A DNA stretch of 1,326 nucleotides from Escherichia coli (GTDB taxonomy: Bacteria > Pseudomonadota > Gammaproteobacteria > Enterobacterales > Enterobacteriaceae). How positions within the stretch are numbered: position 1 is the first letter of the stretch; every line of letters begins with the position of its first letter. The notes beneath the pieces were generated by a model that ran no database searches, was not told where the DNA came from, and saw only the letters and a list, made by a program, of their open reading frames with translations. Shown here in pieces: positions 1,210 to 1,326 of this stretch. The stretch lies in assembly GCF_003334385.1 (NCBI RefSeq), contig NZ_QOWN01000116.1. One strand, given 5' to 3'. The translations under genes were made by a program, and so were the position numbers.

Positions 1210-1326
1210 TCAGAATTTATAACCGACACCCACGATGAAACCGTCAGTGCGCCAGTCACCACTGCCGGAGCCTTCATAAGCAATATCAATGGCCACGGAT
1301 TCGGTCGGGTTAAACTGCACGCCAGC
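1210..1326 (-). CDS. lom: Lom outer membrane protein (Ail/Lom/PagC 8-stranded beta-barrel family), C-terminal 38 codons plus TGA stop; N-terminus beyond the window
   Basis: Minus-strand translation of 1326..1213 gives AGVQFNPTESVAIDIAYEGSGSGDWRTDGFIVGVGYKF, then stop TGA (complement of tca at 1210-1212). The terminal ...GDWRTDGFIVGVGYKF matches the lambda Lom C-terminus as I recall it, and the alternating hydrophobic final strand ending in Phe is the typical OMP C-terminal beta-signal. Position directly upstream of stf matches lambda gene order J-lom-stf. Confidence 0.88.
   Translation of the reverse strand, partial: AGVQFNPTESVAIDIAYEGSGSGDWRTDGFIVGVGYKF

Follow-up and report, generated by a model that had tools for sequence, protein, structure and literature searches.

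Organisation of the locus

The analysed DNA, called the window here, is a stretch of 1,326 nt whose real coding sequence lies on the minus strand throughout. It contains the following features, each given with the evidence used to assign it:

1..1145, minus strand: 5' part of stf (translation, RefSeq, PHROG, match to 9e7m_Ta)
1156..1183, minus strand: terminator-like hairpin (terminator scan, centroid fold, comparison with lambda)
1210..1326, minus strand: 3' end of lom, residues 162-199 of 199 plus the TGA (translation; CDS WP_174147653.1 of NZ_CP053284.1; Pfam; PHROG)

The entire window is 100% identical, over 1326 nt, to positions 1289596-1290921 of the chromosome of E. coli SCU-104 (NZ_CP053284.1), which is the only record with at least 99% identity over the whole window. 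It also matches, at 95-98% identity, thousands of other prophages of E. coli as well as about 20 lambdoid phages that have been sequenced, including ev099, mEp460_ev081 and phi458.

Positions 1326..1213 of the minus strand encode AGVQFNPTESVAIDIAYEGSGSGDWRTDGFIVGVGYKF (38 codons) and are followed by a TGA stop codon at 1212..1210; the lom gene runs on past the right edge of the window, and its integrity was therefore read from the identical SCU-104 record. The stf ATG is located 64 nt downstream of the lom stop codon, inside the window. In SCU-104 the genes occur in the order tape measure, L, C40 peptidase, tail assembly, gpJ, Ail/Lom, tail fibre and tail fibre assembly, the lambda-like tail module of a lambdoid prophage. 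Hence lom has J upstream (in the identical record) and stf downstream on the same strand, the gene order found in lambda. We are highly confident that 1210-1326 of the minus strand holds the last 38 codons and the stop codon of an intact, ordinary lom gene in the canonical J-stf slot of an E. coli lambdoid prophage.

No RNA family reached the Rfam gathering score anywhere in the window, and the only tandem repeat found in it was a weak 15-nt, two-copy repeat within stf. Two short ORFs, 1082..1222 on the plus strand and 1206..1289 on the minus strand in another frame, were rejected as genes, being unsupported and overlapped by annotated features.

Elsewhere in the SCU-104 locus (locus coordinates 2629-2958) the 'phage tail protein' gene at the gpM position is marked as a pseudogene, having an internal stop; the prophage carrying lom may therefore be defective. 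The interval between the tail-fibre assembly gene and ompT (12855-16241) codes for a manganese catalase, two ferritin-like proteins, a general stress protein and a SAM-dependent methyltransferase.

The stf gene and the ORFs antisense to it

The stf frame opens with the ATG at 1145..1143 and continues without a stop for 381 codons, as far as the left edge of the window. It starts with MAVKISGVLKDGTGKPVQNCTIQLKAKRNSTT, matched PHROG tail-fibre families with E values down to 1e-130, and consists of a conserved N-terminal domain with an Ala/Ser/Thr-rich region after it. Residues 1-94 show a match to chain 9e7m_Ta, the lambda 'Tail fiber protein', and the RefSeq product in SCU-104, of 990 aa, is named 'prophage tail fiber N-terminal domain-containing protein'. 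In the full Stf (locus 9182-12154) the C-terminal stretch of about 250 residues matches the receptor-binding tip of T4 gp37 (2xgf, E=2.3e-82). The stf frame is uninterrupted in SCU-104; the lambda reference annotation splits stf into orf-401 and orf-314.

Two plus-strand ORFs, 97-648 (183 aa, Ala-rich) and 5-469 (154 aa), run antisense to stf in its Ala/Ser/Thr-rich part. The longer one, of 183 aa, matched PHROG 560, of unknown function (E=6e-90), and corresponds to the lambda hypothetical protein 'orf206b'; most likely it is an incidental product of the GCN-rich sense frame that annotations have propagated. The record of phage ev099 (LR597635.1) leaves the first 1.4 kb or so of stf, at 4118-5541, unannotated: it has three antisense 'hypothetical proteins' there, and its tail fibre CDS does not begin until 5547. 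This gap suggests either an annotation artefact or a split stf.

The lom gene and its product

In SCU-104 the full lom gene is an intact ORF of 199 aa with a signal peptide (locus coordinates 8518-9117; WP_174147653.1), which RefSeq names "Ail/Lom family outer membrane beta-barrel protein". The Ail/Lom profile Pfam PF06316 matched this protein end to end (residues 1-199 on model positions 1-199 of 199, E=1e-121), and PHROG 108, 'Lom outer membrane protein', matched with E=1.3e-109. Its best match among PDB sequences is lambda Lom (9wso_C, E=2e-49). The 38-aa fragment searched by itself against the PDB sequences found lambda Lom with E=9.3e-18 and OmpX with E=4.4e-6; the resemblance to lambda Lom is thus beyond chance even for the fragment. 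A reading of the window made earlier from its letters only (the sequence-only reading) had called the segment the 3' end of a prophage lom of the Ail/Lom/OmpX family. The call is borne out by the complete identity to SCU-104 and by the Pfam and PHROG matches, and the upstream disruption of the gene that this reading had allowed for was not found in the SCU-104 record.

From what is known of the family, the product would be a 199-aa precursor with an N-terminal signal peptide of about 24 residues, cleaved between AWA and SE. It would first be exported by the Sec route and then be inserted by the BAM machinery through its C-terminal aromatic beta-signal, GVGYKF. This signal, with terminal Phe in the pattern G-x-G-Y-x-F, was read directly in the window, together with the stop codon, at 1230..1210. 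Mature Lom would form an eight-stranded outer-membrane beta-barrel of the OmpX/Ail type, and the long variable hairpins L1-L3, which are encoded outside the window, would be displayed on the cell surface.

Transcription signals around lom

Directly after lom, at 1183..1156, there is a hairpin with an 8-bp stem (7 G-C pairs) and a 6-nt loop, followed by TTTTTT. The stem is kept in lambda, with one G-C pair changed to G-U; the loop differs. Some phage records annotate a 'terminator' at this position. A second terminator-like hairpin, of 10 bp and followed by a T-run, is located directly after J (SCU-104 locus 8467-8490), about 27 nt before the start of lom, and lom is thus bracketed by two terminator-like structures. 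The G+C-rich hairpin with its T6 supplies the terminator immediately downstream that is used as a mark of a moron, a self-contained transcription unit of a prophage with a promoter and terminator of its own, which may be present or missing between neighbours that are conserved. No promoter was found in the window, and a crude scan of the region upstream of lom (SCU-104 locus 8250-9250) gave no match to the sigma-70 consensus. The lambda lom gene is reported to be expressed in lysogens (PMC12366544).

Predicted structure and topology of the visible residues

An AlphaFold2 model of the SCU-104 protein, built on an alignment of 31 members, had a mean pLDDT of 82.9 and a pTM of 0.69. Strand limits were assigned by DSSP on this model, which showed a signal helix at residues 2-23 and eight strands at 29-40, 47-58, 63-81, 86-108, 111-135, 141-166, 172-183 and 186-198. 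The best fold matches among solved structures, found with Foldseek, were Yersinia Ail (3QRC/3QRA) and E. coli OmpX (1QJ9), with E values from 4e-19 to 1e-17. The protein is therefore predicted to be an OmpX/Ail-like eight-stranded barrel preceded by a signal peptide.

In eight-stranded barrels of the OmpX/OmpA/Ail kind both the N- and the C-terminus are periplasmic. It follows that the odd connections are the surface loops L1-L4 and the even ones the periplasmic turns T1-T3. Accordingly, the connection between strands 1 and 2 of eight-stranded barrels is described as extracellular (PMC9329534); printed residue ranges for the loops and turns of OmpX were not found in that paper. The strand count in the model, taken with the rule on the termini, gave the assignment of T3 and L4 among the features encoded by the lom part of the window, which are listed here in the direction of translation:

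1312..1326, minus strand: periplasm-proximal end of strand 6, A162-F166 (DSSP strand 141-166); V164 and F166 are I and I in lambda
1297..1311, minus strand: predicted periplasmic turn T3, N167-P168-T169-E170-S171 (non-strand residues 167-171); T169 and E170 are A and A in lambda
1261..1296, minus strand: strand 7, V172-S183; A173 and I174 are V and V in lambda, identical from D175 onward
1255..1260, minus strand: predicted tip of loop L4, G184-D185, in the gap between the strands ending at 183 and starting at 186; identical to lambda
1213..1254, minus strand: strand 8, W186-K198, and the terminal F199, ending G-V-G-Y-K-F (model and codon table); protein identical to lambda

The T3 residues 167-171 align with N116-N120 of OmpX. 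The L4 tip is located in the motif YEGSGSGDWRT, which is nearly invariant in the family; in the 31-protein alignment D185 and R187 are conserved at 90% or more and are not invariant.

Comparison with lambda Lom

The lambda lom gene (NC_001416; NP_040601, 206 aa) was compared with the visible part codon by codon. Residues 175-199 (25 aa) are identical to lambda Lom, with no non-synonymous and five synonymous codon differences. In residues 162-174, 6 of the 13 are substituted (V164I, F166I, T169A, E170A, A173V and I174V, this allele first and lambda second), and there are four further synonymous differences. The sequence-only reading had stated that the last 16 residues match lambda Lom and that the preceding segment appears to differ at several positions. 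Checked against NC_001416, this was essentially right: the 16 residues are identical, although the identical stretch is longer, and the two pieces that it quoted (20 and 16 residues) are correct except for the omission of the intervening 'GS', which is trivial.

The placement of the divergence in the final extracellular loop did not hold. In the model the six substitutions are confined to the last residues of strand 6, to T3 and to the first residues of strand 7, and would thus all be at the periplasmic pole of the barrel; in the L4 zone 7 of 7 residues are identical to lambda, as is strand 8.

Over the full length the two proteins are only 45% identical. Identity by zone is 20% in L1, 23% in L2, 25% in L3, 67% in the membrane strands and 100% in both L4 and strand 8, and the L1 hairpin of lambda is 8 residues longer than that of the 199-aa type. 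The expectation that substitutions would cluster in loops is thus correct for L1-L3, outside the window, but not for the visible tail, where L4 is unchanged. The two proteins have in common the J-lom-stf slot, the Pfam family and a predicted eight-stranded barrel, and the last 25 Lom residues, the terminator stem and the downstream start of stf are identical or nearly so; they differ in overall sequence, in the length of L1, in the divergent L1-L3 and in the six periplasmic-pole substitutions.

In the diverged segment the sequence QFNPTESVAID of the window is nearer to QFNPMENVALD of OmpX than is QINPAASVVVD of lambda; lambda carries the derived sequence there.

Abundance of the 199-aa type and its relation to OmpX and Ail

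At a coverage of at least 80%, the 600-nt lom gene of the 199-aa type was present in 4091 of 5426 complete E. coli genomes, at a median of 2 places per genome and at up to 13. Two protein clusters of this type at 90% identity have 24,859 and 6,993 members, all named 'Ail/Lom family outer membrane beta-barrel protein'. The 38 residues of the window are the exact consensus of the alignment of 31 family members; the exact 38-mer ends 41 of the 120 best cluster representatives and the lambda tail ends none of the same 120. By these comparisons the 199-aa type is the predominant Lom of E. coli prophages, and the 206-aa Lom of lambda an outlier. To describe the window as holding a 'variant allele' of lambda lom, as had been done, is therefore misleading, the tail being the consensus of the dominant type and the full protein less than half identical to that of lambda.

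The prophage Lom of 199 aa in E. coli and Shigella (WP_174147653.1; VUF53466.1 in ev099; PHROG 108) is the same protein. Over the visible part there is complete (100%) identity to WP_174147653.1, and database members in the thousands are 85-97% identical. With 11 records at 99% or more, the exact SCU-104 allele is rare; it differs from the common alleles by a few conservative substitutions.

The fold is shared with OmpX (1QJ8/1QJ9) and with Ail of Yersinia pestis (3QRA/3QRC), with TM-scores, normalised to the target, of 0.78-0.85. Common to the 199-aa Lom, OmpX and Ail is also the C-terminal pattern QFNP-x-E-x-VA-x-D...GVGY[KR]F, ending in GYKF or GYRF. Sequence identity to OmpX and Ail is nevertheless only about 30%, the L2 and L3 hairpins are much longer in Lom, and L4 is shorter and Gly/Ser-rich, EGSGSGDW as against EQSRIRSVDVGTW in OmpX. 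The scores against the NCBIfam models were below the cut-offs both for the Rck/PagC-like family NF011777 (113 bits against 258) and for OmpX, NF006917 (99 against 176). By these scores the 199-aa Lom is related to Rck/PagC and OmpX but is not an equivalog of either, and serum resistance is consequently not transferable to it by annotation.

Four Lom proteins of 207 aa in the alignment (rows P0082, P0085, P0086 and P0104) are chimeric. They have the signal peptide, strand 1 and long L1 of a third type, with 8 extra residues as in lambda, joined to a typical remainder of the 199-aa type from about GINVKYRYE onward. This points to recombination inside lom at this conserved motif.

Identity of the tail with lambda: conservation and recombination

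DNA identity to lambda is about 50-70% in the body of lom and rises in a step to 90% or more at window positions 1289-1291. The step was placed by DNA alignment, sliding identity and the codon table:

1289..1290, no strand: step in similarity to lambda

The run identical to lambda begins at position 1289. Left of the step, the lom tail, the intergenic region and the first 1 kb or so of stf are approximately 86-100% identical to lambda. The tail, the terminator and the 5' end of stf thus form one block at this level of identity to lambda DNA.

The Lom-specific motif of the tail, DIAYEGSGSGDWRT..FIVG.GY.F, is mostly invariant in the 31 aligned proteins, including one from Citrobacter that is 69% identical. 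An identical tail next to differing residues is accounted for by two Lom types, 45% identical overall, that converge on a nearly invariant C-terminal motif specific to Lom. The differences in the last 25 codons, five synonymous and none non-synonymous, point to purifying selection on the tail.

The tail could instead be a recombinant patch, in which a lom body not of the lambda type was joined near window position 1289 to the 3' end of lom, the terminator and the stf of a lambda-type phage, the conserved tail serving as a 'linker' through which lambdoid phages exchange modules. The sharpness of the step, and the high identity that persists from there across the intergenic region as well as some 1 kb of stf, are in agreement with such an event. 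So are two further observations: the lom body is not linked to what lies upstream, since four types of J C-terminus precede the same lom (see below), and chimeric Lom proteins with a different N-terminal and L1 part do exist. However, the tail is the consensus of the entire 199-aa family and its motif extends to the Citrobacter protein, and the purely synonymous differences argue against a recent exchange and for an old divergence under purifying selection. We regard the patch as a tentative possibility, with the probabilities on the other side.

The patch and the conserved motif are compatible and do not exclude each other. The comparison suggests two contributions to the identity of the tail: the conservation of the motif, and a degree of divergence that the tail shares with the stf block, as expected of a mosaic junction.

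Possible functions of the 199-aa Lom

Over-expression of lambda Lom gave a strong defence against lambda-vir, reported in a section on beta-barrel proteins that block adsorption (PMC12366544). Adhesion to human buccal cells has been attributed to lambda Lom by Vica Pacheco 1997, in the form in which that work is cited in PMC12366544 and PMC9836094. The PDB entry 9wso contains lambda Lom (chain C) together with maltoporin (LamB, the lambda receptor), the latter identical in sequence to that of the LamB-gpJ complex 8xcj; J is absent from 9wso. The joint deposition of Lom and LamB is in keeping with the block of lambda-vir. A literature search for a paper describing this entry (Lom with LamB/maltoporin, superinfection exclusion) found none.

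From the adhesion, the block of lambda-vir and the presence of Lom with LamB in one entry, our best guess, by analogy with lambda, is that the 199-aa allele is a surface protein expressed from the prophage that modifies adhesion and/or phage adsorption. Since L1-L3 share only 20-25% identity with lambda, the lambda phenotypes may not transfer to the 199-aa type.

The L4 motif YEGSGSGDWRT occurs in Lom types that otherwise share 45% identity, and OmpX and Ail lack it. This motif might be a conserved contact surface for a common partner, e.g. LamB, which would make Lom a general modulator of phage adsorption and not an adhesin; we consider this improbable. If it were true, the 199-aa Lom would act on maltoporin or another shared envelope component whatever J domain its prophage carries, and a modulator of this kind would be present in about 75% of E. 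coli genomes.

A different view would make Lom a receptor-matched exclusion cassette, co-inherited with the receptor-binding domain of the J upstream and masking the receptor of its own phage, and the 199-aa allele would then signal a receptor specificity other than that of lambda. The block of lambda-vir by over-expressed lambda Lom (PMC12366544) and the joint presence of Lom and LamB in 9wso can be read in this way. Up to residue 985 or so the J protein of SCU-104 has about 97% identity to lambda J, against about 37% thereafter (the C-terminal 150 residues approximately, locus 7980-8448), so that the J receptor-binding domain and the lom body both diverge from lambda and look like one swapped block.

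This coupling was examined in 80 IMG/VR loci, fetched with the same 199-aa Lom at 94-97% identity; 78 loci (Lom 94-99% identical) were compared. The C-terminal 155 aa of J upstream of the same Lom fell into at least four clusters (39, 24, 10 and 3 loci), which are only 41-75% identical to one another, and no Lom residue was fixed between the J clusters among the 78 loci. The Lom body and the J receptor-binding domain thus assort independently of each other, and coupling of the two was rejected for the 199-aa type; we hold the receptor-matched cassette to be very unlikely. The variety of J C-termini upstream of the same lom also places a recombination junction at the J-lom boundary.

The lomR gene of the K-12 Rac prophage carries an IS insertion. 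That the window likewise ends in a dead remnant, the surviving 3' end of a truncated or interrupted lom pseudogene, is hardly credible: the visible part amounts to only 38 codons, K-12 genomes do contain partial lom matches (query positions 203-416 only) and the SCU-104 prophage has at least one pseudogene (the tail protein with the internal stop), but the sole record matching the whole window at 99% or more has the intact 199-aa ORF, with its signal peptide and full-length Pfam match.

Significance of the locus

The lom gene, its family, its position and its exact sequence are already in RefSeq and are thus already known. Lom biology is gaining interest through the reported exclusion of lambda-vir and the deposited structure of Lom with LamB, to which the window adds nothing specific, and the part of Lom that could change the host phenotype, the surface hairpins L1-L3, lies outside it. 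The finding is of small importance in that this type of allele is present in three quarters of the complete E. coli genomes. Its value is chiefly corrective: lambda Lom is the atypical member of the family, and differences from lambda therefore signal nothing unusual.
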